Assembly (NCBI GenBank): GCA_964612745.1
Contig: CAZTCH010000001.1
Span: 77,387 to 141,386, forward strand
Length of the DNA stretch: 64,000 nt
Direction of reading: 5' to 3'
Source: an uncultured Candidatus Saccharibacteria bacterium
GTDB lineage: Bacteria > Patescibacteriota > Doudnabacteria > UBA920
Shown: positions 6,624 through 39,092 of the stretch, in pieces
Position numbering within the stretch: position 1 is the stretch's first letter
Layout of the letters: every line of letters starts with the position of its first letter
The notes under the pieces: generated by a model
Told to the model about the DNA's origin: nothing
Seen by the model: the letters and a program-made list of their open reading frames with translations, nothing else
Databases searched by the model: none
Translations under genes and position numbers: made by a program

Positions 6624-6631
6624 GAGACGCT

Positions 6632-8248: not shown

Positions 8249-8351
8249 GTATATGAAGCAAGTTTGCATAACGTTTTCTTAATTTTCAACTCGTTTGGAA
8301 ATTGCGCACGATGCATCGCGGCAGTTCATGCAGTCATAGGTCTTCTTGGTA

Positions 8352-8386
8352 TAGTCCAAAAGTAGACGGTCGTCTACTTTTGGACT
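8352..8386 (+). terminator. Perfect 15-bp-stem hairpin downstream of murJ
   Basis: agtccaaaagtagacg/gtcgtctacttttggact inverted repeat followed by a T-rich stretch. Confidence 0.4.
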
Positions 8387-8485
8387 TTTGCGTTACTGGT
8401 GGCATGTGGGAATAGTGCTTAGAGATTTATATGTTTGCATGTTTTTATGCTTGTATGGTTGCATGTTTTGCCTCGCGGTGTGCCT

Positions 8486-8514
8486 TGTGGATAAGGGTTT
8501 TGGCGTGGTAGAAT
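8486..8514 (+). promoter_or_regulatory. Consensus DnaA box (TTATCCACA on the minus strand) next to an extended -10 (TGGTAGAAT) 6 nt upstream of the lepA ATG
   Basis: tgtggataa at 8486-8494; tggtagaat at 8506-8514; lepA ATG at 8521, implying a leaderless transcript. Confidence 0.35.
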
Positions 8515-8520
8515 ACTGCT

Positions 8521-10371
8521 ATGTCAGACCTCTCAAATATACGGAATTTTTGCATTATTGCTCATATTGACCACGGAAAGTCGACCCTTGCGGATCGGCT
8601 TTTAGAAATGACCAACACCGTGAGTAAACGGGAAATGAAGGATCAGTTGTTGGACAGTATGGACCTTGAGCGAGAGCGTGGAATTACCATCAAGCTGCAG
8701 CCAGCGAGAATGCAGTATCAATACGAAGGGTCAAGCGCTAAGGGCCAAGCGCTCAGTGAAGCAGAGCATATAACCTTTAGCCCTCGGAACTATATCCTCA
8801 ACTTAATCGATACTCCTGGGCATGTGGACTTTGCATATGAAGTATCACGAAGCCTTGCGTGTTGCGAAGGTGCAATTTTAGTTGTAGATAGTACGCAAGG
8901 TATTGAAGCGCAAACTTTGGCAAATGCCTACTTGGCGATGGAACACAATTTAAAGCTCATTCCAGTAGTCAACAAAATTGACCTTCCGAATAGTGATAGG
9001 GAGAAAACTGCGAGCGAACTAAAAGCTGCGTTTGGGTTTACCGATGACGAAATTTTGTACGCCTCAGGAAAGACTGGCGAAGGCGTGCTCTCTATTTTAG
9101 ATGCAGTTGTCGAACGTGTTCCAGCGCCAACGGGTAACACCGATGGTGATTTGCGCGCCCTGATTTTTGATTCTGCTTACGACATTCACCGCGGGGTGAT
9201 TTGTTTTGTTCGCGTGTTTGATGGTGTCTTGTTGCCACGGCAGAAAATTTACACGTTAGGAAGTAAAACAGAAGCAGAGAGTTTAGAGATTGGGTACTTT
9301 AAACCGAAAATGGAAAAGTCCGATGCTATTCGTTGCGGTGAAGTGGGGTATATCGTGACAGGGCTCCGAGATGTTTCCAAAGCACGTGTGGGTGACACAA
9401 TTACTTTGCATGGGCAAAGAACAACTACGCAACCACTCCCTGGGTACGAGCACGTAAAGCCAATGGTCTACGCAACCATTTTTCCTGTCTCTGGAGACGA
9501 CTATCCAAGTCTGCGGGATGCCATGGACAAGTTACGTTTGAGTGACGCGTCTTTAGAATTTGAACCAGAGCATATTCCAAGCATTGGGTTTGGGTTCCGT
9601 ACCGGCTTTTTGGGGTTGCTACACATGGATATTGTGCAGGAGCGCTTAACTCGTGAATACGATTTGGACCTTATTTTAACTGCGCCAAGCGTTGCGTACA
9701 AAGTGATTAAGACTTCTGGAGAAGAAGTAATGGTGCAATCGGCAGCGCAGTTTCCAGACCCATCTACCGTGCGGGAAGTACAAGAACCGTGGATGAAAGT
9801 AAATATCTTAACACCACAAGAGTACATCGGTCCGATATTAGAAATAGTTACGAAACGACGAGGGATTTCTGGCGACATTACCTACTTGGGACAAGACCGT
9901 GTAGATATGCACTTTGAAATGCCTTTGGGGAATATTATTATTGATTTTTACGATAAACTAAAAAGTGTTTCTAGCGGCTATGCTTCGCTGAACTACGACT
10001 TTTTGGAACTTCGCTATGGAGAATTGGTAAAAGTGGATGTATTAGTTGCAAACGAAAAAGTAGAAGCGCTTTCTACTATGATGCATCGCTCGGTTGCAGA
10101 AGTTGAAGGACGTGATTTGGTCATGAAATTAAAAGAGCTTATTCCAAGACAGCAGTTTGAAATAGCAATTCAGGCGGCTATTGGAGGCAAGGTGATTGCT
10201 CGCGAGACTATTAGCGCACTACGCAAAGATGTTACTGGCTATTTGTATGGTGGTGACGTAACCCGAAAAATGAAACTCCTGAACAAACAGAAAAAAGGAA
10301 AGAAACGGATGAAAAAGATTGGTAAGGTAGATATTCCACAAGAGGCGTTTTTGGCAATTTTGAAGAAGTAG
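8521..10371 (+). CDS. lepA: Elongation factor 4 (LepA)
   Basis: 616 aa. G1 motif AHIDHGKST, DTPGHVDF, and the unique LepA C-terminal domain (GKKRMKKIGKVDIPQEAF). Confidence 0.9.
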   Translation: MSDLSNIRNFCIIAHIDHGKSTLADRLLEMTNTVSKREMKDQLLDSMDLERERGITIKLQPARMQYQYEGSSAKGQALSEAEHITFSPRNYILNLIDTPGHVDFAYEVSRSLACCEGAILVVDSTQGIEAQTLANAYLAMEHNLKLIPVVNKIDLPNSDREKTASELKAAFGFTDDEILYASGKTGEGVLSILDAVVERVPAPTGNTDGDLRALIFDSAYDIHRGVICFVRVFDGVLLPRQKIYTLGSKTEAESLEIGYFKPKMEKSDAIRCGEVGYIVTGLRDVSKARVGDTITLHGQRTTTQPLPGYEHVKPMVYATIFPVSGDDYPSLRDAMDKLRLSDASLEFEPEHIPSIGFGFRTGFLGLLHMDIVQERLTREYDLDLILTAPSVAYKVIKTSGEEVMVQSAAQFPDPSTVREVQEPWMKVNILTPQEYIGPILEIVTKRRGISGDITYLGQDRVDMHFEMPLGNIIIDFYDKLKSVSSGYASLNYDFLELRYGELVKVDVLVANEKVEALSTMMHRSVAEVEGRDLVMKLKELIPRQQFEIAIQAAIGGKVIARETISALRKDVTGYLYGGDVTRKMKLLNKQKKGKKRMKKIGKVDIPQEAFLAILKK

Positions 10372-23385: not shown

Positions 23386-23484
23386 GCCTAAAATTGACTT
23401 GCAAAAAGTCTTAAATTGTTGTACAATATAGATTCTCTTGTGCAGAGTATTCTGCTACTAGGGAGCTCTATTATATTGAACTAT

Positions 23485-24234
23485 ATGTCTGAACCACATT
23501 TTGAGTTACCTAAAAATTTAACACCACGAGACCCTGCAGATAACGATAGGGAGATAGAAGAAATAGTAAGCCCTATCCAGCCAGAACCAAAGCACAAACA
23601 TTTTAAAAGTGGGCTTATCCCTTTGTTGTTAGTTCTTTTGTGCGCAGGTGTGGGTGCGGTTGTGCTCTACGATGCGTGGCCAAAGTTTGAGTACGGTGCA
23701 AAAGAAGCGAAAGCACCAGAAGTTGTTGCGCAAGCAGTCGTACCAACACCATCAGTCATAGAATCCGTACAAGTACCAACACCTACACCACTCGTCTCAA
23801 GCATTGCGACTGATGTACCCAGTGTAGTTGCTGTGGTGCCAGCACCAACTCCAGTAGTAAAGGTTGCAGGAACGAGTACGACTCGTACGAAAAAAGCTAC
23901 AACGTACACCGCAGTAGATGGCGTACGCATAGCGCTTGCTGCAGGGGAAACCGCTTCTACCGGCGAAGGTGTTACGGTGGTATATGCTGCTAGTGGTGCT
24001 GTATTGCTTCGTGTTGAACAGTCTGCATTCTTGCTGGACACACCAGCAGCGCTCGGGTATCAGCTTGCTTTAAGCCCAGATATCTCTCGCTTGCAGTCTA
24101 CATTCTTTGGTGATTATCCAGCGTTCTCTTATGTCCAAGCAGGGCACAAAGGCATGGCGATTATCCGTGGTCAGGTTGTGTACTATGTTACCGAACGTGC
24201 CCAAAATCAGCTTTCTAAATTTTCTGTACAATAA
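23485..24234 (+). CDS. Membrane-anchored protein with Pro/Thr/Val-rich linker and C-terminal globular domain, unknown function
   Basis: Start chosen at MSEPHFELPK, downstream of a TTGCAA, 17 nt, TACAAT promoter-like element at about 23399-23428. Single TM near residue 50. Confidence 0.45.
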   Translation: MSEPHFELPKNLTPRDPADNDREIEEIVSPIQPEPKHKHFKSGLIPLLLVLLCAGVGAVVLYDAWPKFEYGAKEAKAPEVVAQAVVPTPSVIESVQVPTPTPLVSSIATDVPSVVAVVPAPTPVVKVAGTSTTRTKKATTYTAVDGVRIALAAGETASTGEGVTVVYAASGAVLLRVEQSAFLLDTPAALGYQLALSPDISRLQSTFFGDYPAFSYVQAGHKGMAIIRGQVVYYVTERAQNQLSKFSVQ

Positions 24235-26014: not shown

Positions 26015-27280
26015 CTATTCTTGGCTAACTGGTTGCCAGCGAATGGTGTAGAGGCTCGATTTTTCTGTTCTTTGATACAGTTTTGCTTTTGGGTTTTCCT
26101 CTTTGTAAGCTTGGTATGTTACGAAGTCTGCAAATGGGCGCAGCCCAGTTTGTTCGATTAAAAAGATGGTGGGATTATTTTTGAATTGCACCATGCTCCC
26201 AACTTTGATGCTTGTCGGCAATTTTGCAGGATTAGCCCTGCTGGGGAAGTTAAGGACGATGTCCATTTGGGGTTTCTGCTTGCCTTCTTCTGGCTCTATA
26301 GAAAGTGGGTAATCGCCCCACCACGGGCCGCTTGACCAGTATATGGCTCCAACGAGCTCGTCGTTGTTGTCGACTGTGTCGAGCATGTTTCGCATGATTG
26401 CGAGCGCTTGTGGGTCAGCGCTGGGGGCTCCGTATTCGGTAAGTATACCGCGTACTTTATGTGTTTTGAGCCATTGAAGGAAGGGGAGGATGCGCTCAGT
26501 GCCCAACGTGGCTGCGCTGGTGACTTTGCTTGCATATGTGCCGGTGAAATCTTTGTCAAAGTAGATGTGCGCTGCATAGAGTAGTTTTCCTGCAGGGTCA
26601 GCAATGAGCAAATCGCGGTTGTTGTCCTGCCAAAAATAGGCGCTTTGCCAGCTATATCCAGGGATAAGCAGAGTAGTTTTGGTGTCTACTTTTCGAATTT
26701 CGGTCACGGTGGTTTGCATGATGTTTTTCCATGCAGTACTACCACCCGGTAAGTCGTGTGGCTCGTTCATGAGTTCGGCTCCCCACAACGCTGGTTTTTG
26801 CTTTAACGCAGTGAGTAGCTTTACCCAAACGTCGGCAAGGGCAGCGTTATCTTCTTCTTGTAACGGTGTGTGGTAGTAGCGTCCGTAATTGTGCAGATCA
26901 AGAATTACTTTGGTGTTTGCTGTTGCAGCAGAGTCTAAAAATGCCGCAAGCGCGGTAACGCCGCTCTGGTTTAGTTCGCCAAATTTTTTTGCTTGGAGGC
27001 GTTCCCAGAGAAAGGGGAGTCGGACCACGGTTAAGCCTTTGCTGGAAAATGAGGTAAGAATTTCTGTATCGGTTGGGTATATATAGTCTTTGCCTTCTAC
27101 CCCTGGGAGCTTCTGGGGGCCGAATTCTGCTCCGCTGCGGTTAACGCCATATACTTTTTCTGGGCGGGGTGCGCTTGCTCCGTCTGCTCGGTTGCTACCG
27201 GACACAAATGGAAAAACCACCGTAAATAAGCAGAAAAGCAATAAAATTTTGTGTGATTTAGCCATTGACTTTTTTCTCAA
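26015..27280 (-). CDS. Secreted glycoside hydrolase family 5 (cellulase-like)
   Basis: Signal peptide. GH5 acid/base NEP motif (ELMNEPHD) and nucleophile TEYG motif (GILTEYGAP). Confidence 0.75.
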   Translation of the reverse strand: MRKKSMAKSHKILLLFCLFTVVFPFVSGSNRADGASAPRPEKVYGVNRSGAEFGPQKLPGVEGKDYIYPTDTEILTSFSSKGLTVVRLPFLWERLQAKKFGELNQSGVTALAAFLDSAATANTKVILDLHNYGRYYHTPLQEEDNAALADVWVKLLTALKQKPALWGAELMNEPHDLPGGSTAWKNIMQTTVTEIRKVDTKTTLLIPGYSWQSAYFWQDNNRDLLIADPAGKLLYAAHIYFDKDFTGTYASKVTSAATLGTERILPFLQWLKTHKVRGILTEYGAPSADPQALAIMRNMLDTVDNNDELVGAIYWSSGPWWGDYPLSIEPEEGKQKPQMDIVLNFPSRANPAKLPTSIKVGSMVQFKNNPTIFLIEQTGLRPFADFVTYQAYKEENPKAKLYQRTEKSSLYTIRWQPVSQE

Positions 27281-27359: not shown

Positions 27360-29444
27360 ATGCACCATTCCGTAATTGTCATTCCTACATATAACGAAAA
27401 AGAGAACATTGGTACGATTGTGCCAATGATTTTTTCTGTTGCAAAAAAACTGGAACGAGAGGCGATAATTTCAATTCTGGTAGTAGACGATACTTCTCCA
27501 GACGGTACGGCAGATGTGGTTCGGGCAATGCAAGCGCAGTATCCAAACTTGCAACTAATTCTGGGGAAAAAAGAAGGCTTGGGGAAAGCCTACGTCCGAG
27601 GAATGCATCATGCGTTAACGGTCTTGGGTGCGGACTCAGTATTTGAAATGGACGCAGATTTGTCCCACGACCCAGAGGCAATCCCAAGCATGCTCAGAGA
27701 AATTTTGTCTGACAGTGCCGATTTTGTGATTGGTTCACGATACGTTTCTGGTGGGTCTATCCCACTCGAGTGGCCTTTCATGCGCAAGCTCAATTCATGG
27801 GCAGGAAACTTTGTTGCTCGCGTAGTTATTGGGCTCTATGGTATTCGTGATTGTACCGGTGGTTTTCGTGCCATTCGTGCTTCGGTGCTTCAAGCTGTGC
27901 ATTTAGAAGAAATTCCAGTTGCAGGCTACGCTTTTCAAGTTAGCTTATTGCAACGAGCTGTTTTGGTTGGAGCACGGATATTGGAAGTACCAATTACTTT
28001 TCGTGACCGCGAAATTGGTGTGTCAAAGTTGCGACTGAAAGATCAAATTGAATTTATTTATAAATCCTTTACGTTACGCATTCATAGCCTGACTGTGCGC
28101 TACGGATTATTTGCATTACTATTTTCTGTTGTTGTAGCATTTTTCGCTGCTGTATACATGTCTACTGAGCACGTTGCTGCGTTTGTGGTAGGTATTTCTG
28201 TTTTGCTGTTGGCACAAGGTGTGTGGAATTTGTGGCTCATGATCCAAGTGTGGGATAACCCACATAAGACAGGTGAATATGGTTCACCAAAGACATATGA
28301 AGCGCCACAGTATTCTTTTACCGCACTGTTGCCTGCGCTACACGAAGAAGTAGTGATTGGAGATACTATTCGCGCTGTGCATGCAGTGGATTACCCAAGC
28401 CACTTAAAGCAGATTTTAGTCATTTGCCGGTACGACGACACGGGGACAATTGCAGCAGCAGAACAAGCGATTGCAGGTCTGGGCGAAGGTGCCAATGCGA
28501 AAGTACTGGTATATAACCGTATCCCAAGCAACAAGCCGAAACAAATGAACTTTGCTTTGGCAGAAACCACTGGGGATGTCGTTGTACCATTTGACGCAGA
28601 AGATGGACCACACAAAGATTTGTACCACATTGTAAACACCACCATGATTCGCCAGAATGCAGATGTTGTGCAGTCTGGGGTACAGCTCATGAACTTTGAA
28701 AGCAACTGGTATTCGGTGTACAACGTGTTGGAGTATTTCTTCTGGTTTAAGTCTGTCCTTCCGTATTTTGCTGCGCGTGGTGCAGTGCCTTTGGGTGGAA
28801 ACACCGTATTCTTTAAACGAAAGTGGCTAGAACGAATTGGTGGCTGGGACGAAGAATGTTTAACAGAAGATGCAGAAATTGGGATGAAGTTGTCCCAAGC
28901 TGGTGCGCGTATTCGAGTTATTTACGAAGAACAGCACGCAACCCAAGAAGAAGCACCGCTTTCACTGGGCGTGTTTATTAAGCAACGTACCCGTTGGCAC
29001 CAAGGGTTCATGCAAGTTATTGGCAAGGGTCAATGGCGTAAGTTTTTGACCGTAAGGCAGCAAGCATTGTCTTTGTACGTACTGGCATGGCCAGAAATCC
29101 AAGCGGTGTTGTTCTTGTACGCTTTTGTCTCTGCGGTTGCTTTGTTCTTTATTAAGCTTCCTGCATGGGCGACGGTCGTTTCTATATTGCCGTTGTATTT
29201 ACTCGTTGTATTGTTTGTTGTGTGTGTTGTTGCACTCTACCAATTTTGCCAAAGTTACAACAAGAAGTTTCCGTGGTGGATGCCGTTTAAAATGTTAGTA
29301 GCATTTTATCCTTTTCAGATTTTACTTGGAGTATCTGCGCTGCGAGCTGTGTACCGACTATTGAAAGGTTCAACTGGTTGGGAAAAGACTGTGCACGTTG
29401 GGGCACACCGTGTGAGCGTACCGCTAGAAGTACCGTTAGAATAA
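27360..29444 (+). CDS. Polyprenol-phosphate mannose synthase (Dpm1/Ppm1-like GT2) fused to a membrane domain and a second GT2 domain
   Basis: N-terminus VIVIPTYNEKENI, DDTSPDGT, MDADLSHDP, DCTGGFR matches DPM synthase. TM region at residues about 240-300. Second GT2 with FDAEDGP DXD motif. C-terminal TM helices. Confidence 0.75.
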   Translation: MHHSVIVIPTYNEKENIGTIVPMIFSVAKKLEREAIISILVVDDTSPDGTADVVRAMQAQYPNLQLILGKKEGLGKAYVRGMHHALTVLGADSVFEMDADLSHDPEAIPSMLREILSDSADFVIGSRYVSGGSIPLEWPFMRKLNSWAGNFVARVVIGLYGIRDCTGGFRAIRASVLQAVHLEEIPVAGYAFQVSLLQRAVLVGARILEVPITFRDREIGVSKLRLKDQIEFIYKSFTLRIHSLTVRYGLFALLFSVVVAFFAAVYMSTEHVAAFVVGISVLLLAQGVWNLWLMIQVWDNPHKTGEYGSPKTYEAPQYSFTALLPALHEEVVIGDTIRAVHAVDYPSHLKQILVICRYDDTGTIAAAEQAIAGLGEGANAKVLVYNRIPSNKPKQMNFALAETTGDVVVPFDAEDGPHKDLYHIVNTTMIRQNADVVQSGVQLMNFESNWYSVYNVLEYFFWFKSVLPYFAARGAVPLGGNTVFFKRKWLERIGGWDEECLTEDAEIGMKLSQAGARIRVIYEEQHATQEEAPLSLGVFIKQRTRWHQGFMQVIGKGQWRKFLTVRQQALSLYVLAWPEIQAVLFLYAFVSAVALFFIKLPAWATVVSILPLYLLVVLFVVCVVALYQFCQSYNKKFPWWMPFKMLVAFYPFQILLGVSALRAVYRLLKGSTGWEKTVHVGAHRVSVPLEVPLE

Positions 29445-29445
29445 T

Positions 29446-32130
29446 ATGAACGAACAAGAGATTTCACAATTACGCGCGGTTGGGTTACTCCCACAGTCTG
29501 AACAGACTGTGGCTCCTTCGGCGCACCCAACAGCGGCACCGACACATGTGCAGCATGTGCTTGCCACAGCAGACGATGCACTGGTGACCGAGCGTGGGGT
29601 GGTGACAACTCCAAAGATTTCTAAAATGTGGGAAATTGCACTGGTGGCAATCTTGCTCATTATTACTGCAGTAGCACATGGTACCAACATGTTGCAGTAC
29701 CCATACTACGAAAACGACGAAGGGACTTATATGTCACAAGCGTGGTCCGTGGTTACCTCTGGAACTTTGAGCCCGTACACGTACTGGTATGACCATGCAC
29801 CTGCTGGGTGGTTCTTTATTGCTGCATTTACCAAATTGGTTGGCGGATTCTTTGCATTTGGCACGAGCATAGACACGGGCCGAGTATTTATGTGGCTACT
29901 GCACGTGGTATCTGTATTTTTCGTCTATAGTATTGCCAAGCAACTCACCAAGGGGCGAGTACTGGCTGGGCTTGTCGCTGGATTAGTGTTTGCGTTATCT
30001 CCTCTGGCTCTCTACTTTGGCAGACGGGTGTTGCTAGATAATATGATGGTGTTCTGGGTGTTGTTGTCCTTGTGGACGTTAGTACGGGCAAAGGTGACCT
30101 TGCGCGCAACAGTGTTTGCAGCAGCTGCGTTTGGGGTTGCGGTGCTTACCAAAGAAACTGCGGTGTTTTTCTTGCCAGCATTTCTCTATGTGGTTTGGGC
30201 TGGTGTGCATAAATCACACCGTGTGTTTGGTTTGTCGCTCTGGGTGACTATCTCTGGCTTAGTGATTTCGCTGTATCCGTTGTACGCACTTATAAAGTCA
30301 GAATTCTTTCCTGCAAGCTGGTTTGGTTCGGGAAAGCACGTGAGTCTTTTGGAAACACTCAAGTTTCAGGCAGGGCGTGGTTCAGGGTTGCCGTTTTGGA
30401 ATACCCAGAGTGAGTTTTACACCAACTTGGTAGAGTGGTTTCACCGCGATACCGCACTTATGGTTATAGGTGGGAGCGCCCTGCTCCTTGGGCTTGTGTT
30501 TGCATATGCACGCAAAGAGTTTCGCGCGCCGTTGCTATTTGCAGTGTGTATGCTGTGGTTTTTGATGCGTGGTGGTATTATTATCAACTTTTACATTTTG
30601 CCACTGATTCCATTTCTCGCTTTGCTGATTGGTCTTGTGGTGTCACTGCTTGCAGAATCATTTAGTAAATTTTTGGTGAGCATAGACTGGGCGAAAGGAA
30701 TTGCGTATACGTATGCCGGTGCTGCAGTGGTTGCATGTGCGTTGTTCGTGGTGCCAATGCTTGCACAGTCTGGGGCGATTTACACAACAGACGAAACCGC
30801 GCCAATGAAACAGGCGCTCGAGTGGACCAAGCAAAACTTAGATCCGACTGCAGTTATGGTAGTGGACAACGCTATTTTTGTGGATTTGCGTGAAAGCCGT
30901 TTTGCTGGGGACCCTGCATTCAGCAATGCCGAGTGGTTTTGGAAAGTAGAAAAAGACCCAACAGTGTTTGCAGAGCGTATTGGTGGTGACTGGTTACACG
31001 TTGACTACGTGTTGTTGTCTCACGAAATGGTTCGCCAAATTAGTGACTATCAAATAACGTTGACCAAAGACATTTTGCCGCACACAAGTCTGGTGACTGG
31101 GTGGACTGGTGGGGGAGCGTTCTTGGATTTAGATAAATATATAAGTACAAATGGTGACTGGATGCGGGTGTACAAAGTGCATAGCCAAGAAGAGTTTGTA
31201 GGGGAAACACTCTGGCGTGCAGATGTAGCGCAGTATGTGCACAGCTATGGCCAAGTTGTGCCAGAGTCTGGTGTGACTACTGCAAGCACCCAAGCAGATA
31301 TGCTGCTTCGTGCAGTGCTGGTAGATGACCAGAAGACTTTTGCTGGGTTGTGGGCATGGACCCGTGACCATATGCAACACCGACAAGGGGATAAGCTCGT
31401 TTCCGAAGGCTGGCAGAATGGTTCTGCTGCAGTAGATTACAACGCGTACCTTGCCCCAAATCAAGATATCGCTACTGCGCTTATTTTGGCAGGACGCAAG
31501 TGGAAACAAGCAGAGTACACAACAGCAGGAACAGAAATTGTTGCAGACATTTGGAACAAACTCGCTATTTCTGCAAATGGACAAACACTGCTTGCAAGTT
31601 CTACGAAGCAAGGTGTGCAAGAAAGCAGACTGGTTAACACCAGCTTGCTTGCTCCGGCGTCCTACCGACTCTTTGCGCAAGTGGATAAAAGCCGCCCATG
31701 GGCTACACTAGCAGACCAAAGCTATACGTTGTTGCCAAACACAACTGCAACACTTACGAAAGAACTTACTGTTTCTAAATCCGGGGTAATTACCAAAGTT
31801 ACTTCTGGTGCATATGCACCTGCTGTTGTAGAGAAGCATGTAGCACAAGATGCTGTGTGGTTCGAAACTGATACTGCTCAGGCTTGGTTTACTACAAGCA
31901 CTGGCGAAGTTGCAAGTCTGACTACGGCAACTGTGAAAGACAAGCAATTGGCACAAGAGCTGTACGCGGAAGCCATTGCAACACACTTTAACAGAACAGA
32001 AAAAGCATGGGCTACAGAACTCGGATTTACAGAAAAGAGTGCTCTGTGGCAAGCATTTAGTTTGTTTGCTCCAGACCAGCGACTTATATCGGTTCTGCGA
32101 AATATAACCCCAGTAGTAGCAACGAAATAG
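29446..32130 (+). CDS. GT-C fold glycosyltransferase family 39 (PMT/ArnT-like) with large C-terminal extracytoplasmic domain, possibly an (alpha/alpha)6 glycosidase-like fold
   Basis: DE motif just after the first TM (YYENDEGTYMSQAW), about 11 TM helices, then about 450 aa soluble domain with GH8-like hints (DIATALILAGRKW). Confidence 0.65.
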   Translation: MNEQEISQLRAVGLLPQSEQTVAPSAHPTAAPTHVQHVLATADDALVTERGVVTTPKISKMWEIALVAILLIITAVAHGTNMLQYPYYENDEGTYMSQAWSVVTSGTLSPYTYWYDHAPAGWFFIAAFTKLVGGFFAFGTSIDTGRVFMWLLHVVSVFFVYSIAKQLTKGRVLAGLVAGLVFALSPLALYFGRRVLLDNMMVFWVLLSLWTLVRAKVTLRATVFAAAAFGVAVLTKETAVFFLPAFLYVVWAGVHKSHRVFGLSLWVTISGLVISLYPLYALIKSEFFPASWFGSGKHVSLLETLKFQAGRGSGLPFWNTQSEFYTNLVEWFHRDTALMVIGGSALLLGLVFAYARKEFRAPLLFAVCMLWFLMRGGIIINFYILPLIPFLALLIGLVVSLLAESFSKFLVSIDWAKGIAYTYAGAAVVACALFVVPMLAQSGAIYTTDETAPMKQALEWTKQNLDPTAVMVVDNAIFVDLRESRFAGDPAFSNAEWFWKVEKDPTVFAERIGGDWLHVDYVLLSHEMVRQISDYQITLTKDILPHTSLVTGWTGGGAFLDLDKYISTNGDWMRVYKVHSQEEFVGETLWRADVAQYVHSYGQVVPESGVTTASTQADMLLRAVLVDDQKTFAGLWAWTRDHMQHRQGDKLVSEGWQNGSAAVDYNAYLAPNQDIATALILAGRKWKQAEYTTAGTEIVADIWNKLAISANGQTLLASSTKQGVQESRLVNTSLLAPASYRLFAQVDKSRPWATLADQSYTLLPNTTATLTKELTVSKSGVITKVTSGAYAPAVVEKHVAQDAVWFETDTAQAWFTTSTGEVASLTTATVKDKQLAQELYAEAIATHFNRTEKAWATELGFTEKSALWQAFSLFAPDQRLISVLRNITPVVATK

Positions 32131-32137
32131 TTACTAT

Positions 32138-32192
32138 GCATACTCGGGCAGTGCTGTGTGTGTAAAACTTGCACCCACGGCACTGCCCGAGT
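32138..32192 (+). terminator. Long hairpin (15-bp stem) after the GT-C gene
   Basis: atactcgggcagtgc ... gcactgcccgagtat inverted repeat. Confidence 0.5.
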
Positions 32193-32438
32193 ATGGGGCT
32201 TTGCAAATCTAGCATTTGTGCTAAAATATCCGCTGGTAAAAATGCCGTTTGAAACGTGCACGTAAGACTCTGGACGCCCAGAAATACTTGCGTTTGCGAA
32301 CAGATGGTAGCACTGATTCCGCTACAATTTGTTGGGTGCCATACAGGTAGCCCGCCTCCACTCATTGTTTCCCAGAAATATGGGCCGACAATGTTTCGGA
32401 TAGTGTCCACGAATCCATAAAAGCCGAAGGAGGCAATT

Positions 32439-33188
32439 ATGAAACGCAGTTTATTTCGGTTGCTGCTGGTATTATTGATGAGCACAACTGCTCTCGCACA
32501 ATATCAGATACCTGAAAGAGTAAGCGCAGCGCTCCCTGAGCGCATGTGCAACTCTTGCACAACACAGATTGCGCCACTGACCTGCTCGCCGATTATTGAA
32601 TTTGATTTCTTTAGCGGCAACTCGGGCGGCGATCAACCGCGCCAGCTTGGCCACTTCGTTTTTAACCAGTTTTCCGAAGATTGGAAAACGGAATACTTCA
32701 CGACAGATACATTCACTAACGCTTATGGCAAGACAGTAATCGGCCGTGACGAAGCGAAAAGTTGGGTGAAGTATAAAATCAGCATGAGTGGCTGGGTAGA
32801 GATTGAAGCCTGGCTCCAAGGGGCGAGTGTCCAAACAAGCGGAGAAAACCATTTTAGCGGGGGCGCTATCGAAATGCGCCTACGCGGGTATAAGAACACT
32901 CTTGGCGGCTTTACAGTTGTTGAGATGTGGTCTTCACCAGAGGGTTTTCGTCTCAGTTCATTTGGTTCGACATTGAATTATGGGAGCTTCGCTGGACTTC
33001 CCAGTATGCAATGTTGGAGCAATATGTCCATTAATGCGCCGGCGTACGGCGGATACAACCGGGTTGTTTTGAATCAAATCTTAAACGACTGGGACATGTT
33101 GTATTACCGGCCAGTCGAAGTTGGAAAGCCTGGGACGGACGTTTTGTTCAATTTTTTACCGGTTAAGATCACTTTTCCTGGCTGTTAA
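32439..33188 (+). CDS. Secreted protein of unknown function
   Basis: Signal peptide MKRSLFRLLLVLLMSTTALAQ. 249 aa, Cys-containing, no known motif. Confidence 0.5.
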   Translation: MKRSLFRLLLVLLMSTTALAQYQIPERVSAALPERMCNSCTTQIAPLTCSPIIEFDFFSGNSGGDQPRQLGHFVFNQFSEDWKTEYFTTDTFTNAYGKTVIGRDEAKSWVKYKISMSGWVEIEAWLQGASVQTSGENHFSGGAIEMRLRGYKNTLGGFTVVEMWSSPEGFRLSSFGSTLNYGSFAGLPSMQCWSNMSINAPAYGGYNRVVLNQILNDWDMLYYRPVEVGKPGTDVLFNFLPVKITFPGC

Positions 33189-33459
33189 AATCTGCGCGTT
33201 TCGCAGGGGGTGGTTTAGCTATTTGGTTTGTTAGTTAGTGTTAAAACTAATGTAACAACCAAAGATGCTAAGCCACCCACCTTTTCCATTTCTGGTTAGT
33301 AGAGGTTTGTGCGTAAAGTATTTGCGCATGTACCTGTATTCAAACCAGTATATAGTTTCAAAAAACAAATATACACGTTTGCATGCAAAACTTCGACGCC
33401 TATGAAGTTATAGGATTGTTGGAGTTGTCCTTTCTCAATTCTCAGGGGGAGAAAAAGAA

Positions 33460-34236
33460 ATGAAACAGTTCATTGTTTCAGTATTGCTTTGCGTGCTTCT
33501 ATCGTTTGCTGTATTTGCACAAAGCTCAATCTTAGAGCGTCGTGTAGTAAATGCAGCGAGCTTTGAAGACGCAGTAGCGCCTGGGTCAATCGCAGCGATT
33601 TTTACCAATCCTACGCTTCATACCTCGGCTTCACTCAAAAACACGAAAATTACAATCACGGATCGCAGAAAAATTGCGCATTCGATTGAGACGATTTTCT
33701 TTTCAGCGCCTACGCAGACAAATTTCTACATTCCGAAAAATGTGGCAACTGGCCCTGCGGAGGTTGAAGTAAAAACTGGTGCTTTTGAGATTTCAAAAAC
33801 TACGATAATCCTAACGCATATCGCACCTGGCCTGTTTTCCGCAAACTCCAACGGTGTTGGGGTTCCGGCGGCGGTTCTACTGCGTGTGTCACCTGGAGGA
33901 GTACAGACGTACATCCCTCTGTTTCGCTTTAGTGAAATAGAGCGGAAGTATGTACCTATTCCTATTGACCTTGCGACTGACAAAGTATTTTTGGTTCTGT
34001 TTGGAACTGGAATACGGAACAATCCTGCTTTAGAGGATGTAAAAGTCTTTTTGGGAAACGTGAGCGTGCCAGTGTATTACGCTGGCTCACAAGGACTACC
34101 AAGTACCGAACGGGAATTTTTGGGGTTGGATCAAGTTAATGTGTTGTTGCCGACAAACTTACCCTCTGGGCAGTATGTCGTGTCAATGAACACCGCCAAT
34201 CTGCCAACTAACAACCTTGTCATACAAGTTCGCTAA
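33460..34236 (+). CDS. Secreted protein with Ig-like domain resembling TIGR03437 (Soli_cterm) family
   Basis: Signal peptide. Motif RRVVNAASFEDAVAPGSIAAIFTN is typical of that Ig-like family. Confidence 0.5.
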   Translation: MKQFIVSVLLCVLLSFAVFAQSSILERRVVNAASFEDAVAPGSIAAIFTNPTLHTSASLKNTKITITDRRKIAHSIETIFFSAPTQTNFYIPKNVATGPAEVEVKTGAFEISKTTIILTHIAPGLFSANSNGVGVPAAVLLRVSPGGVQTYIPLFRFSEIERKYVPIPIDLATDKVFLVLFGTGIRNNPALEDVKVFLGNVSVPVYYAGSQGLPSTEREFLGLDQVNVLLPTNLPSGQYVVSMNTANLPTNNLVIQVR

Positions 34237-34248
34237 AGGAGCATCGTC

Positions 34249-34917
34249 ATGAACAGATTATTCGCAGCCGTACTTCTTAGTGCGGTATGTTTTTATTCAT
34301 CTTCAGAGCAAGTATCTGCGCAAACAGCTCCTACGATAAGAATCACAGTCGTCAATGATTCTGAAGGAGTAAATAGGACCGCTCAGGGGCCGGTGCTTAC
34401 AGTGCCTGCGTATGGTAAGGTGATCGCTATTTCAAACGCAGAAGCATACGGAAGATTGCCCAACGGTGGGTACGTGTGGAACGACGACCCTTCTAACCCA
34501 TCACCGGGGATGAACGAAGAGTTGGTGGCGTTTATTGCCTGGGTCACCCCAAATATTTTTGACGTATGGCTTTCGGTGGAAAAGTTTTATCTTCCAACGA
34601 AAGACATTTTTCCAAGAGGCTTTGGCCCAGAGGTTGCCCTGCGTGTGACAATAAGCCACAAAGATGGCAAGCCACAGCTTCTTGTTCAAAACAAGCAGAC
34701 TAAAATGGGGTTCCTGCAGTTTAACGTTCCAGGTGGTGATGCAACATTACCTCAAACGTTGAAAGACAGGCAACTCTCGGGGGTTGTGTGGACAACGCCT
34801 GACGGTACACAATTGATTTGTGGTCTTCAAACAAGTCCCGAAACATATACAGCCATGAGGATTAAAAAACCTGATGGTAAGTTTGTTGACTTTGTCACAC
34901 TCACTCTTGAGCCGTGA
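34249..34917 (+). CDS. Secreted protein of unknown function
   Basis: Signal peptide MNRLFAAVLLSAVCF. 222 aa. Confidence 0.5.
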   Translation: MNRLFAAVLLSAVCFYSSSEQVSAQTAPTIRITVVNDSEGVNRTAQGPVLTVPAYGKVIAISNAEAYGRLPNGGYVWNDDPSNPSPGMNEELVAFIAWVTPNIFDVWLSVEKFYLPTKDIFPRGFGPEVALRVTISHKDGKPQLLVQNKQTKMGFLQFNVPGGDATLPQTLKDRQLSGVVWTTPDGTQLICGLQTSPETYTAMRIKKPDGKFVDFVTLTLEP

Positions 34918-35123
34918 TTCGGTTGTTTCATTTCAAAACAAAAGCGATTGCTAGTTCTGGGGTGTTTATCCTAGAGTTAGTAATCGCTTTTTCCTTTTTT
35001 ACTCTAGCCAGAGGTGCGAACTTCTGGCATACTGAAGGCAAACAAACAGTGCTGGTAAGCGAAGTGCTTGCCCATGCACTGTTTATTTATTTTCAAAATA
35101 AAATCACATACTGAGGAGGGGTG

Positions 35124-35297
35124 ATGACTAAAAGAGAGATAGTATTTTGGTTTGTTGTTTTGTTCTTGCTAACGGCGCTGTTCTGCTTTGGGCCGTTAGT
35201 GGTTCAGATGATGATTGAATCTAAGAATACGAGCGCTGCTATGCCTTCGTATACGTTCTCAACACAAAAGGGTTACCCTTGCGCTTTGCATGGGTAA
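35124..35297 (+). CDS. 57-aa small membrane peptide
   Basis: Strong SD (gaggagg) 4-5 nt upstream of the ATG, one TM helix. Stop lies inside the terminator hairpin. Under 60 aa, so absent from the ORF track. Confidence 0.35.
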   Translation: MTKREIVFWFVVLFLLTALFCFGPLVVQMMIESKNTSAAMPSYTFSTQKGYPCALHG

Positions 35298-35306
35298 CCC
35301 TTTTTC
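35268..35306. terminator. Bidirectional terminator hairpin (aaagggttaccc...gggtaaccctttt)
   Basis: 12-bp stem with T-run on the + strand and A-run (T-run on the minus strand). Serves the convergent genes. The same gggttaccc motif recurs at 55664-55700. Confidence 0.6.
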
Positions 35307-35317
35307 TTTTTTATACT

Positions 35318-37423
35318 TTATTTTATTGTTGTGCCGGTGCGGTAGGTGACGAATTCTGCTTGGTTTACGGTGACTACTTTTGCGGGGTCAATGTTCAGTC
35401 TGGTTGCAGCTGCAGGTGTGATGTAGCGTTTAACGCTGCCTTCTATTTTGTAGACTCTGGCGTTGTTCGCTACTTTTATGTATTCCACATCGTCGTACGA
35501 GTCGAGGATTTCTTGGTTTACCATAACCACGTCTTCCCATTTCCCGCCGTAGCTCAAGAATATTTGTGCATTGAGTACGGGCATTTTTGCGCCCCACAAG
35601 GTTACCCAGTATACAGTTGGGTCACCATCTACTCGCACATATTTACCCATTGGGGAGTTTGGGGTGTTGCTACCAATCGTAAATGCCTGTTTTGCTGTTT
35701 CGCTTAAGGTAAGTGCGAATGAGTCTAAAGTTGCTTGGGTCAAGCGATAGGTGCCAGTTTGTCCAATGAGCACTGTTGGGTTTAGGGTGAAGCCAGTAGC
35801 TGTACTAAATGCATTCACGCCGTATTTTGTTTGCAAGTAGTTTGCAACGTCGGTGCGCACTTGTGTTGGTGCCCAAGATGTAGCAACCACTGCGCCGGTT
35901 ATCGTGTTCTGAAACGAAAAGACAATGACCGGAGTAAGGATGTTTGCGCTATTGTACGCCCAGCCAGACAATGTAGTCGCGCTGACGCTGTCTACATATC
36001 CTTCTGCTACTTTGGCGGTAGGAGTGGTTGCAGGCTTCACGACAAATGTAAATACTTTTTGAGCGGTTGCGCCAGTAGCATCAGTGACTTTTACGGGTAC
36101 TTGGTAAGTGCCGGCAAAGGGCATTATTTGTCCGGAGTTTATCGAAACAAATGTACCATTGCTATTTAGCTGCGTGTAGCAGCAAGGGTAGGCGTTGTAT
36201 TGCCCCGAAAGAGTGCTCCAAGTGTATGGAGCGGTGCCCCCAGAAGCAGCAAGGGAGATGCTGTACGCTGCACCAACCATGCCATCTTGGAGTTGGTCAG
36301 GAGTGGTAATGGCAAGTATTTGCGAGGTTGTACCGGTAATAGTGAATGTTGGGCCGTAGAATGGCGTTGCAGGTGTGCTGGTGACTGGTGTGCCATTGTT
36401 TTGTAGCGCGTCTAACCCAAGTCGCATAGTGCCAGCACTCGCTGCGCCAATAGATGCACTGACTTCGAGGCTCACGGTGGTGTTCGCCGGAATAGTCAGG
36501 GCAGGAGAAAAGGTAATGGTGGCATAGCGAGTAGCACCTTCTACCATGTTCAGTGTGATCGCTGTCGTGCCGACAAATGCAGTGCGATCTTTGTACAGTC
36601 TCATGTTGCTAAACTGGTCGCGGCTCGCAGAGTCAGAAACAACACGCAGAGAAGTGACAGTTGCAGGAGTGTTCCCAGCGCGTAGTCCGAAGTTGGCAAA
36701 AGTGTAGTTGCTGGTGCTGGCAGGGATAACGGTGGCAACACCAGACAATGACTCGCTCAGAGTAAGGGTACCGTTCGCGAGAGTGCCCGCAGCTGCGACT
36801 GGAATGCTTCTGCTACTGCTAGTGCCAGATTGGTTTGTAACGGCGAACGTAGCAGTACCTGTGCCATTACCCAGCAGTACATTGATTTGTGTTGCGCTTT
36901 GGAAGCTAATGGTACCAGTGATAGTCCCAGTAGAAACGAGCTGGTTACCGGTTGCTGCAAACGTGCCATAGAGCACGACGAATGCGCCGCTAGTTGCTTG
37001 CGAGTTGTTGTACTGTGGAGTGGCGTTTGGGTCAAAGCCTTGAATGCCGGTGAGTGTTGGGGCAGTGCTTGTGGTCCCACTGGCATTTACTTTCCAAGGG
37101 ATAATACTGTACACACCAAGACCACTTCCGTCAGTCACGTGGACACCAAGTTCAAACGTGCCTGCTTGGGTTGGGGTGCCACTAAACACGCCAGAGCTTG
37201 CAAGCGTCATGCTTGTTCCGGGGTGTGTCAGGTACCATTTTTCAAAAACAATAGTGCCACTTCCAGTTGCAGAAAGCTGGGAGGAGTACGCTTGACCGAC
37301 GGTGCCGTCTGGTAAACTTGTGGTGACTACCATGGGGGCAGCAAGGGCAGCGCGAGGTACGCCGGCGAGAGTCAAGGCGCACACCAGCGAAAATAGCCCA
37401 AAAACCTTTAGAAATCTGTGCAT
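35318..37423 (-). CDS. Large secreted cell-surface protein with He_PIG (putative Ig) domains, Thr/Ser/Gly-rich
   Basis: Signal peptide. Two motifs LPDGTVGQAYSSQLSATGSG and GMVGAAYSISLAASGGTAPYTW are typical of PF05345. 701 aa, beta-rich. Confidence 0.6.
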   Translation of the reverse strand: MHRFLKVFGLFSLVCALTLAGVPRAALAAPMVVTTSLPDGTVGQAYSSQLSATGSGTIVFEKWYLTHPGTSMTLASSGVFSGTPTQAGTFELGVHVTDGSGLGVYSIIPWKVNASGTTSTAPTLTGIQGFDPNATPQYNNSQATSGAFVVLYGTFAATGNQLVSTGTITGTISFQSATQINVLLGNGTGTATFAVTNQSGTSSSRSIPVAAAGTLANGTLTLSESLSGVATVIPASTSNYTFANFGLRAGNTPATVTSLRVVSDSASRDQFSNMRLYKDRTAFVGTTAITLNMVEGATRYATITFSPALTIPANTTVSLEVSASIGAASAGTMRLGLDALQNNGTPVTSTPATPFYGPTFTITGTTSQILAITTPDQLQDGMVGAAYSISLAASGGTAPYTWSTLSGQYNAYPCCYTQLNSNGTFVSINSGQIMPFAGTYQVPVKVTDATGATAQKVFTFVVKPATTPTAKVAEGYVDSVSATTLSGWAYNSANILTPVIVFSFQNTITGAVVATSWAPTQVRTDVANYLQTKYGVNAFSTATGFTLNPTVLIGQTGTYRLTQATLDSFALTLSETAKQAFTIGSNTPNSPMGKYVRVDGDPTVYWVTLWGAKMPVLNAQIFLSYGGKWEDVVMVNQEILDSYDDVEYIKVANNARVYKIEGSVKRYITPAAATRLNIDPAKVVTVNQAEFVTYRTGTTIK

Positions 37424-37451: not shown

Positions 37452-39092
37452 TTATTGTACCAGATATTTGGTCACAACAATCCATGTGCCAGAATATGGC
37501 CTGACATCGGCAAAACCGGCTTCGTCGGCCTGCTTCCAATTGCTGGGCACTGTTGGTTTGTTGCTCCCAAACGCGTTGGTCCATAACAGCCACACGGTGT
37601 CACCTGTTTTTACTGCATCGGCAAAGGAGGGGAGTAAATCTGCATCTGTGAGAATGGCGGTACCTACAAAGTGAGGCAGATTTTTTACAGATGTATTGCC
37701 GCCAGAGTAGAGCATGGGTCTGGGCCATTCTGCAGTCCGGTCCAAGGTTCGTATTTGTGCGGGCGGTGCGTCATCGCTTAAATCTTCGAGGCTGTATCGC
37801 GAAGACGACATGGTAGTGGTTTGGGTGACGATTGCTGCGGGTGGGGTAAGTTGCGATAAGTAGTATTTTAGGTTAAAGAATTCAAAGCTCGTCCCTACAT
37901 AGAGTTTGTCGGTTGGTGTCGCGTGACTCTGTAAGTAGGTCGCAGCTCCAGCCATACCAGTTTTTTTAGTAATGTCTAACTTCTGCCAGTTATTGGCAAA
38001 CACAAGTACACACACAATGGCGTATGCAGCTGTTGCGGTCCAAATAAGCCACGAACGTTTCCACGAGTCTATCCAGAGTGCGAGAGCTGCCAGAAGAAAA
38101 GCTGATGCGTACAAAAAGTATCGCACAAGGTAAACCGAAGAGCTTTGGCCTTTTACAAATGCAAGCAGTGCAAACAGGAGAGAGCCTGCAAAGGGTGCGG
38201 CAAACAGAAATGCCACGAGCCACACGTGAGTATTTTTTTGTTTTTTGAGAAGGAGGGCAAAAATACTGACGAGTACAATGGTGGTAACTGCCAAAGTGAT
38301 TTTGGTCGTTGTTTTTGCAATGTCCGACTCAAGGCCAAATGTGACCTGCCACAGTGTGGAAGGAATGCTCCACCAATTGAGTGGTGGAATCCAATACCCC
38401 GCACCAACTTGTTTAAACTGGAAGATAAACCAATTTGTCCACGGTAAAAACAAGAGGATTGTGGTCAGGTATCCAGTGGCGAGTGGTGCGTAGGCGCGTA
38501 TATCTTTTTTGAAATGCACTGCGGTGTAGAGTAAGGCGTACACGCATGCAGCTACCACAGAAAAAAGTAAGTAGTAGTGGGTGAGCGCAGCAATCCCTGC
38601 CAGAGCTCCAAACGCGACAAATAATTTGAATTTATTTTTTATTTCCGTGCTGTTCAGGGCTTTTGCCAGCACCCACGCCATGCTTACCGCGAGAAATGCG
38701 CCAAATGTGTACATACGTGCTTCGGTGGCGTATTGGATTTGAAATGGGTTGACGACTATAGCAAGTGCGGCGATTGTCGCAGCTCTGGGGCTTTTAAAGA
38801 TATCTCGCACAAATCCGTACGTAGTTGCTGCTGTTGCCAGCCCAAAGAATACCGAAAAGCCACGCAGGGCGAGCAGTGAGTCGCCAAGCAGCATGCTCCA
38901 TAACCGGAGCGCAACGTAATACGCTGGTGGGTGCACGTCCAGACCGATACGGTAGAACATCTCACCCCACGGGTAGTGAATGAGCAGTGCGGAAAATGCT
39001 TCGTCATGCCACAAAGAAATGCTCGTGTTGTGGTAGAGGCGAAGGAAAAGACCAAAGGCAAGGATAGAGACGAGAGCGAGGTATTTTTTCAT
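37452..39092 (-). CDS. GT-C fold glycosyltransferase family 39 (ArnT/PMT-like)
   Basis: N-terminal TM then a DE motif (LWHDEAFSALL). About 12 TM helices plus a C-terminal soluble domain. Confidence 0.7.
   Translation of the reverse strand: MKKYLALVSILAFGLFLRLYHNTSISLWHDEAFSALLIHYPWGEMFYRIGLDVHPPAYYVALRLWSMLLGDSLLALRGFSVFFGLATAATTYGFVRDIFKSPRAATIAALAIVVNPFQIQYATEARMYTFGAFLAVSMAWVLAKALNSTEIKNKFKLFVAFGALAGIAALTHYYLLFSVVAACVYALLYTAVHFKKDIRAYAPLATGYLTTILLFLPWTNWFIFQFKQVGAGYWIPPLNWWSIPSTLWQVTFGLESDIAKTTTKITLAVTTIVLVSIFALLLKKQKNTHVWLVAFLFAAPFAGSLLFALLAFVKGQSSSVYLVRYFLYASAFLLAALALWIDSWKRSWLIWTATAAYAIVCVLVFANNWQKLDITKKTGMAGAATYLQSHATPTDKLYVGTSFEFFNLKYYLSQLTPPAAIVTQTTTMSSSRYSLEDLSDDAPPAQIRTLDRTAEWPRPMLYSGGNTSVKNLPHFVGTAILTDADLLPSFADAVKTGDTVWLLWTNAFGSNKPTVPSNWKQADEAGFADVRPYSGTWIVVTKYLVQ

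Follow-up and report, generated by a model that had tools for sequence, protein, structure and literature searches.

Why do three adjacent genes for small proteins differ so profoundly between genomes that are almost identical on either side of them? The question is raised by a 64,000-nt stretch of DNA, which we refer to as the window, from an uncultured Candidatus Saccharibacteria bacterium (assembly GCA_964612745.1, contig CAZTCH010000001.1, positions 77,387 to 141,386). The three open reading frames (ORFs), here named P1, P2 and P3, had been described in an initial annotation of the sequence as co-oriented, tightly spaced genes for signal-peptide proteins, bracketed by genes for GT-C glycosyltransferases, and as candidates for novel secreted glycoprotein substrates or binding proteins. 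Comparison with related sequences points to the trio being a hypervariable allelic cassette in near-identical backgrounds. We put at roughly 0.5 the probability that this cassette is a co-evolving, exposed extracellular binding or recognition module, hypervariable between strains and subject to diversifying or frequency-dependent selection.

Four allele lineages are known, that of the window among them. One is found in L006, L007 and L011, from a Saccharibacteria metagenome-assembled genome (CAZZBG010000077 for L006 and L011), with amino-acid identities to the window of 49–51% for P1, 40–41% for P2 and 32–35% for P3. Another, which we call the second lineage, comprises Logan contigs L002–L005 and L013–L017 together with L010, from the Saccharibacteria metagenome-assembled genome CAZKVS010000057 (34% for P1, 48–49% for P2 and 38–40% for P3). 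The last is represented by L009, from an ENA aquatic metagenome; P1 is not on this contig, P2 is 59% identical to that of the window, and the partial P3 is 37% identical. Hypervariability was assessed as nucleotide identity by region, between the window and L006 and between the window and L009. Across both contigs, identity to the window is 92–100% in the non-coding flanks and the intergenic region but only 40–65% in the coding bodies. In the comparison with L006 (Table 1), the divergent sequence falls into two blocks, P1 and P2–P3, and the second block ends sharply, identity rising from 45% at 34922-34979 to 97% from 35040 on. In the comparison with L009, identity is 93–98% in the intergenic region between P1 and P2, 33–82% (mostly 55–67%) in P2, and 40–58% in P3.

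Synonymous differences are saturated in P1, P2 and P3 (pS of 0.69–0.84; 0.70–0.82 in comparisons with the window), and pN is well below pS. In the downstream flank, on the other hand, the C-terminal 104 amino acids of a He_PIG-domain protein, inside whose gene L006 ends, are 98% identical between the two genomes (dS of 0.18 and dN of 0.012), and a small ORF is 91% identical. Because the synonymous sites of the trio are saturated while dS in the flank is low, the alleles appear to predate by far the genomes in which they now reside. Furthermore, the relationships among the alleles are at odds with those of the flanks. L006 shares the flanks of the window, yet it has the most distant P2 and P3 alleles and the closest P1. 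L002 has flanks without detectable nucleotide similarity to those of the window, yet its P2 and P3 are closer. This discordance implies that the two sides of the conserved intergenic region have recombined separately. The simplest reading of these sequences is that P1 and P2–P3 can be exchanged independently of one another, with a conserved anchor linking the two units, and that homologous recombination moves the alleles. Many related contigs stop at the edges of the trio locus, and strain-level variation may be the cause of such breaks.

Two other sources of local diversity were considered and rejected. The trio is not a plausible target of a diversity-generating retroelement, since divergence extends across the entire coding sequences, even through the signal peptides, and has saturated the synonymous sites. 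The scan of window ORFs of at least 150 aa revealed no reverse transcriptase, and no long repeats were found around the trio locus. Phage or mobile cargo is likewise not indicated, since the trio has no PHROGs match, no flanking repeats, and chromosomal housekeeping genes as neighbours. The window is ordinary chromosome, with genes for MurD, FtsW, MurJ, LepA, DnaB, RecR, CysS and adenylate kinase, and the ATP synthase operon. The GC content of the trio, overall and at third codon positions (GC3), lies within ~1.5 standard deviations of the genes in the window.

Table 1. Features in and around the trio locus, with nucleotide identity to L006 by region (positions are those of the window).
Feature	Position	Strand	Description
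P1	32439-33188	+	249-aa ORF; mature protein ~229 aa, isoelectric point (pI) 5.2, 5 Cys; member of a putative new family; predicted to be monocistronic
P2	33460-34236	+	258-aa ORF; stand-alone TIGR03437; pI 8.9
P3	34249-34917	+	222-aa ORF; mature protein ~198 aa, pI 5.9; member of a putative new family; coupled to P2
Terminator-like hairpin	32139-32195	+	Inverted repeat with 27-nt arms, 89% complementary, and a 3-nt loop; ends the PMT_2+GH8 gene and separates P1 from it
Intrinsic-terminator hairpin after P1	33208-33278	+	Long, with a U-rich tract next to it; RNA fold of -45.7 kcal/mol
Putative promoter/leader region of the P2–P3 operon	33240-33440	+	Conserved anchor between the two variable units
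Leader upstream of P2	33290-33462	+	92–98% identical in L006 and L009
P2–P3 intrinsic terminator	34940-34991	+	Stem of 20–22 pairs, then TTTTTCCTTTTT; 3' edge of the variable block
Upstream non-coding	32310-32369		93% identical to L006
First ~110 nt of P1	32430-32549		70–80% identical to L006
Remainder of P1	32550-33187		32–60% identical to L006
P1–P2 intergenic	33247-33426		92–95% identical to L006
P2 and P3, from just past the P2 start codon up to the terminator	33477-34979		28–68% identical to L006
Downstream flank	35040-35636		88–100% identical to L006, mostly at least 95%
GH5 cellulase-family gene	26015-27280	-	Upstream of the double-GT2 fusion
Double-GT2 and PMT_2+GH8 genes	27360-32130	+	694-aa and 894-aa proteins, genes one base apart
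PMT_2 GT-C fused to GH8	29446-32130	+	894 aa; upstream neighbour of the trio
Small ORF	35124-35297	+	57 aa; GAGGAGG site; in the conserved flank after the variable block
He_PIG/PKD-like Ig-domain protein	35318-37423	-	701 aa, exported; 24% Ser+Thr, 10 N-x-S/T sequons
PMT-type GT-C	37452-39092	-	Downstream GT-C gene
DUF4012 protein	4467-6623	+	718 aa; between FtsW and MurJ
Unannotated ORF	23416-24234		272 aa; weak Zot-like PHROG match only

The three co-oriented ORFs of the initial annotation are real, and they lie exactly at the positions given there. Each is preceded by a Shine-Dalgarno-like site that can be read from the sequence, GGAGG for P1 (7 nt upstream), GGGGGAG for P2 and AGGAG for P3. 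The order P1–P2–P3 is also found in other assemblies, with tblastn E values of 1e-26 to 1e-91, and the ratio of non-synonymous to synonymous substitution rates (dN/dS) between the close relatives L002 and L010 is 0.12 for the P3-like gene and 0.117 for the P2-like gene. The same-order homologues, together with the low dN/dS, argue that P1–P3 are not chance ORFs. The trio is under purifying selection. Public gene calls put the start of P1 at Met14, which gives a protein of 236 aa. The P1 homologue in L006 has the start Met of the longer form, beginning MKRSILLWLLVLLMGVPALA and continuing with QYQ after the cleavage site. On the basis of this homologue and of the GGAGG site, we prefer the 249-aa form, which includes the signal peptide.

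How are the three genes transcribed? The tight spacing described for the trio applies to P2 and P3 only, which are separated by 12 nt; P1 and P2 are 271 nt apart. The P2–P3 gap is 9 nt in L006 and L009, and in L002 the start codon abuts or overlaps the stop codon. The hairpin that follows P1 is more stable than any of 200 shuffled sequences (z = -6.6). In L006 its outer stem is kept, and the inner stem and loop are swapped for a different pairing sequence. The strong terminator hairpin in the P1–P2 gap leads us to propose two transcription units, P1 alone and P2–P3. The leader upstream of P2 also folds more stably than shuffled sequences (z = -4.3), and no Rfam family matched the intergenic leader. 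The leader sequences are too alike for a covariation test. A sub-threshold Rfam match to ftsZ-DE (35225-35304), which overlaps with a terminator hairpin, probably arose by chance.

Genes like P1, P2 and P3 occur in identical order and orientation in L006 and L011, in L002–L005 and in L013–L016. The shortened contigs L009, L010 and L017 retain the pair of P2-like and P3-like genes, and the P3-like gene is always immediately downstream of the P2-like gene. When 1.84 billion representative proteins were searched exhaustively with HMMER, the P3 family yielded only three small-protein clusters, and scans of JGI metagenomes with P1- and P3-family patterns found no relatives. From these two results, the three-gene module appears to be rare and, so far, confined to Saccharibacteria. 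A scan of GTDB species representatives matched two Saccharibacteria contigs; a Holophagaceae match in the same scan was spurious, lying inside a gene on the opposite strand. A word-indexed search of 5.8 billion proteins returned self matches only for P1 and P3, which reflects a sensitivity limit and not true orphan status. P1-like and P3-like genes, at 32–49% identity, came to light in the gene neighbourhoods around P2 homologues.

In the second lineage, the genes around the trio share nothing with those in the window. No glycosyltransferase is encoded in the 9 kb downstream, and the upstream side ends at a contig break. An additional P1 paralogue lies downstream of the trio in this lineage (L002:3693-4568, 30% identity). 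When L002 (3688-4756) is compared with L010 (1743-2576), the P3-like gene is followed by the P1 paralogue in the former and by an unrelated exported 239-aa ORF in the latter, with flanks that are 86–89% identical. A second replacement site thus adjoins the module in the L002/L010 lineage. Further downstream in L002, the gene at 4818-8789 encodes an exported protein of 1323 aa in which a GSDH beta-propeller is combined with a PKD domain and several PA14 domains; beyond it lie genes for two large proteins without a Pfam match. Several independent Logan contigs (L002, L003, L013, L015 and others) end at one point ~600 nt upstream of the P1-like gene, which suggests a repeat or a strain-variable junction.

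What kinds of protein does the trio encode? The TIGR03437-like motif that had been noted in the middle ORF was correctly recognised but understated. Residues 29–258 of P2 match the whole of the NCBIfam profile TIGR03437 (positions 1–225 of 225) with a score of 85.6 bits (cut-off 29.05) and an E value of 3.9e-24, and P2 shares with the TIGR03437 family the motifs VxxAASF, APGSI..IFG, APGLF and LFGTG...GLDQVN. TIGR03437 is listed in NCBIfam as a paralog domain, the “Solibacter uncharacterized C-terminal domain”, and a full-text literature search for the accession found no paper. Many relatives are longer than P2 and carry the domain C-terminal to FG-GAP/VCBS, PKD, beta-helix or SBBP passengers. 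In P2, by contrast, the domain is the entire mature protein, and only the signal peptide precedes it. Among 77 relatives, 27, P2 included, are no longer than 280 aa; the others extend up to 451 aa, some with further Pfam domains. P2 is also set apart by its context, a Saccharibacteria genome and a constant pairing with a P3-family gene, whereas some other relatives are labelled Blastocatellia (Acidobacteria) or derive from JGI metagenomes.

A structural model of P2, with a predicted local distance difference test (pLDDT) score of 92, has two tandem IPT/TIG-type immunoglobulin (Ig) domains, at residues ~28–118 and ~122–257. The modelled beta-sandwich superposes on solved IPT/TIG (E-set) domains at a sequence identity of 5–16%; no Pfam TIG model matched P2. 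Folds of this kind are characteristic of proteins located outside the cell or on its surface, among them Bacteroides surface glycan-binding proteins and S-layer proteins. P2 is alike in fold only to the IPT/TIG domains of plexin/Met, of Bacteroides SGBP-B (BACOVA_02650) and of S-layer proteins, and the likeness says nothing about its ligand. The first Ig domain of P2 is the more variable, with 15 of 91 positions invariant; in the second domain the figure is 46 of 137. Signal peptides, too, are wholly different between P2 alleles.

P1 and P3 have no significant match in Pfam, NCBIfam, PHROGs or PDB, whether searched as single sequences or as family alignments, and nothing significant was found in PDB sequence and profile searches with the P1, P2 and P3 families. 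P1 and P3 therefore appear, from these searches, to define new protein families without a described relative. As had been noted previously, no catalytic motif can be confidently recognised in the trio, and P1–P3 were non-catalytic in every test run. Within each new family, invariant motifs survive at 32–50% identity among alleles: GY..(x)DDPxNP and [YF]PRG[FY]GPE in the P3 family, and NHxSGGAxE and SSPEGF in the P1 family. A single-sequence model of P1 is beta-rich, but its confidence is low (pLDDT of 47) and it is uninformative; Foldseek found no match below an E value of 0.1.

Several weaker similarities were rejected. Sub-cut-off Pfam matches to A24_N_bact (P1) and to DUF4469 and ILVD_EDD_N (P2) were ignored. 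P3 gave weak, multi-repeat phmmer matches to giant SpaA/Cna_B and InlB-B-repeat proteins (E values of 3e-7 to 9e-6). No member of the P3 family has a Pfam match, and hhalign against SpaA repeats gave a probability of 0.4%. We treat the phmmer matches to SpaA/Cna_B as repeat-amplified chance similarity. Homology among P1, P2 and P3 themselves was likewise rejected, as hhalign aligns their signal peptides only.

The Sec signal peptides that had been attributed to all three ORFs are borne out by inspection of the sequences and by conservation among homologues, the two means by which signal peptides were assigned. Each protein has a basic n-region, a hydrophobic h-region of 12–17 residues, and a small-x-small site followed by Gln (ALA-Q, VFA-Q and VSA-Q); the signal peptide of P1 is MKRSLFRLLLVLLMSTTALA, cleaved before Q. 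Every homologue with an assignable cleavage site has a similar signal peptide, and Gln is always at +1. P1, P2 and P3 are thus predicted to be Sec-exported proteins cleaved by signal peptidase I. The translations of P1–P3 and their homologues contain no conserved lipobox, LPXTG motif, C-terminal hydrophobic segment or membrane anchor. The charge pattern is kept across alleles: P1 (pI 5.2–5.9) and P3 (5.4–6.1) are acidic, and P2 (7.0–8.9) is neutral to basic.

What is the functional significance of three exported proteins that vary together in this way? We favour the view that the trio is a self-contained Saccharibacteria module, in which P1 would form one unit and the coupled P2–P3 pair a second, with Sec-exported products. 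P1, P2 and P3 would work jointly in the extracellular space, forming an exposed structure for binding or recognition whose specificity varies from strain to strain, and the N-terminal Ig domain of P2, the more variable of its two, would be the part best placed to confer that specificity. Diversifying or negative frequency-dependent selection would keep divergent alleles of the whole trio in the population, the likely pressures being phage adsorption or the recognition of a host bacterium by its epibiont. Homologous recombination in the conserved flanks and in the P1–P2 intergenic region would shuttle the alleles among near-identical genomes. The physical interaction, the surface exposure, the selective agent and the ligand of the trio are things we infer. 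A more specific proposal, which we think less likely than not, is that the trio is an unrecognised three-component recognition system, in which a minimal tandem-Ig protein of the TIGR03437 family is combined with two proteins of new fold. The alleles that a strain carries might then set its specificity of host attachment or phage adsorption, with balancing selection and with swaps at the internal anchor.

Comparable loci have been described elsewhere. Replacement flexible islands of aquatic prokaryotes carry the genes for exposed structures and pass between genomes by homologous recombination, with phage predation proposed as the driver (PMC4033161), and the S-layer cassette of Clostridioides difficile shows similar switching behaviour, its product being a phage receptor (PMC7677006, PMC10100898). 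Like these, the trio occupies the same locus in close relatives, with conserved flanks, sharp boundaries, divergent exported content and discordant alleles. However, the trio block is tiny (~2.5 kb and three genes), it contains divergent homologues instead of differing gene sets, and it has an internal anchor, the P1–P2 intergenic region, that splits it into two separately exchangeable units. The trio proteins are also neither S-layer proteins nor enzymes of glycan synthesis, and their exposure and link to phage are presumed. Within the phylum, transposon sequencing (Tn-seq) in Southlakia epibionticum has indicated that epibiotic growth of Saccharibacteria needs multiple adhesins (PMC10633639). 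The trio resembles these in belonging to a phylum for which host adhesion is essential, and in being exported, Ig-containing and non-enzymatic. It differs in being known solely from uncultivated environmental Saccharibacteria.

Several points weigh against our preferred view of the trio as an exposed recognition module. The near-identical background extends over only ~150 nt upstream, 190 nt of intergenic sequence and 650 nt downstream, and L006 and L009 are contigs of 3.4 kb and 1.5 kb, so that genome-wide relatedness is presumed from short sequences. No more than four allele lineages are on record. Saturated divergence fits long-term balancing selection and import from unsampled, more distant lineages equally well. 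P1–P3 lack an anchor motif and could just be released from the cell. The conserved pattern of isoelectric points counts as weak evidence, and the idea that the three proteins interact or are retained on the cell is our supposition. The single-sequence model of P1 is of low confidence and has no significant fold match.

An alternative explanation, which we consider unlikely, is that P1–P3 serve the surrounding GT-C and GT2 enzymes as dedicated acceptors or as glycan-binding partners, being exported and then glycosylated by PMT-like enzymes. The setting invites it. Pfam-type domain matches bear out that the surroundings are rich in glycosyltransferases: an 18-kb stretch at ~26.0-44.6 kb contains genes for a GH5 protein (minus strand), a GT2–GT2 fusion, the PMT_2+GH8 protein, two PMT-type GT-Cs (minus strand), a GT2 and a GT4-family protein (MraY/WecA-type), and the trio lies between the PMT_2+GH8 gene and the two PMT-type GT-C genes. 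The description of the trio as bracketed by GT-C genes holds upstream, whereas the downstream GT-C gene comes only after the small ORF and the He_PIG gene. All three proteins are predicted to be exported, and IPT/TIG domains are found in glycan-binding surface proteins. However, P1, P2 and P3 have 1, 1 and 2 N-x-S/T sequons, or 0.4–0.9 per 100 aa, as compared with a window mean of 0.41 +/- 0.44. Across alleles there are 0–2 sequons per protein, none of them conserved. Ser+Thr content is 14–16%, and there are no Ser/Thr/Pro-rich linkers. Terminators cut the trio off from both neighbours, and in the L002/L010 lineage the trio lies among unrelated genes, with no glycosyltransferase in the 9 kb surveyed. 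The adjoining He_PIG protein is, on its sequence, a far better candidate for a glycoprotein substrate than P1–P3, and the best in the island. The idea that P1–P3 are glycoprotein substrates thus has nothing in its favour except proximity to the glycosyltransferase genes. The companion idea that they are binding proteins is still a reasonable reading; a link to glycosylation is not supported.

Between the trio and the He_PIG gene, the small ORF of the conserved flank encodes a protein (MTKREIVFWFVVLFLLTALFCFGPLVV...) predicted to have a single transmembrane helix. Gene calls for L006 give this ORF a longer start, and those for the Logan contig omit it.

The same neighbourhood suggests another role, which we regard as quite unlikely: that P1–P3 are accessories of an upstream beta-glucan-like exopolysaccharide machine, and bind, guide or anchor the polymer. 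The GH5, double-GT2 and PMT_2+GH8 genes look like a beta-glucan-type exopolysaccharide locus. The GT2 protein matches Glyco_tranf_2_3 and Glyco_trans_2_3 above threshold and Cellulose_synt weakly below it, with GH8 and GH5 adjoining, and P2 resembles the E-set domains found in amylases and pullulanases as well as the Ig-like spacers of Bacteroides surface glycan-binding proteins. Nonetheless, no carbohydrate-binding module or catalytic domain was detected in P1–P3, the trio is predicted to be transcriptionally separate, and synteny with the GT2 and glycoside hydrolase genes is absent from the L002 lineage. Moreover, extreme allelic divergence would be unexpected in proteins that handle a conserved polymer.

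Hypervariability could also mark self and non-self, if the trio were a strain-specific set for secreted antagonism or kin discrimination, made up of one effector and its cognate partners. Adjacent genes with co-varying, deeply divergent alleles in near-identical backgrounds are what such a set would look like, and the replaced site directly downstream of P3 in L002 and L010 fits as well. We nevertheless consider this very unlikely. P1–P3 carry no toxin, peptidase, nuclease or pore-forming signature, and no dedicated secretion or transport genes are adjacent. A signal peptide on all three proteins is also out of keeping with immunity proteins, which usually reside in the cytoplasm or the membrane. 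Furthermore, the alleles are homologous over their full length, and do not combine a conserved N-terminus with swapped C-terminal toxin domains. Finally, an origin in chimeric metagenome assemblies, or in drifting or dying genes, is highly improbable: although the comparison contigs are short metagenomic assemblies, many of them broken near the locus, at least three independent assemblies agree (the window with Logan SRR12762304, L006/L007 from NCBI/ENA, and L009 from ENA), the ORFs are intact in all lineages, and the low pN relative to pS and low dN/dS described above are those of maintained genes.

Elsewhere in the window, GC skew is positive in all 2-kb bins, and cumulative skew climbs without a turning point. 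At 22-24 kb, in the interval from the ATP synthase operon to the unannotated 272-aa ORF, GC content falls locally to 0.39. The DUF4012 protein is encoded within the cell-wall cluster.

Like other Patescibacteria, Saccharibacteria live attached to bacterial hosts. To our knowledge, little has been established about what sets their host range or their susceptibility to phage. Replacement-type hypervariable surface loci are already known, and the trio is not a new category of locus; what is new is the rare module and its two new families. A small, cleanly bounded locus encoding three exported proteins that differ by 40–65% between near-identical genomes is a candidate determinant of specificity and a convenient strain marker. 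Two protein families without described relatives are added, and TIGR03437 is placed in a minimal, stand-alone and genetically linked context, in which its partners become testable. Even if its function proves to be mundane, the trio clearly illustrates replacement-type hypervariation in a symbiont with a reduced genome. If P1–P3 are indeed a recognition system, they would provide the first functional handle on the large TIGR03437 family.

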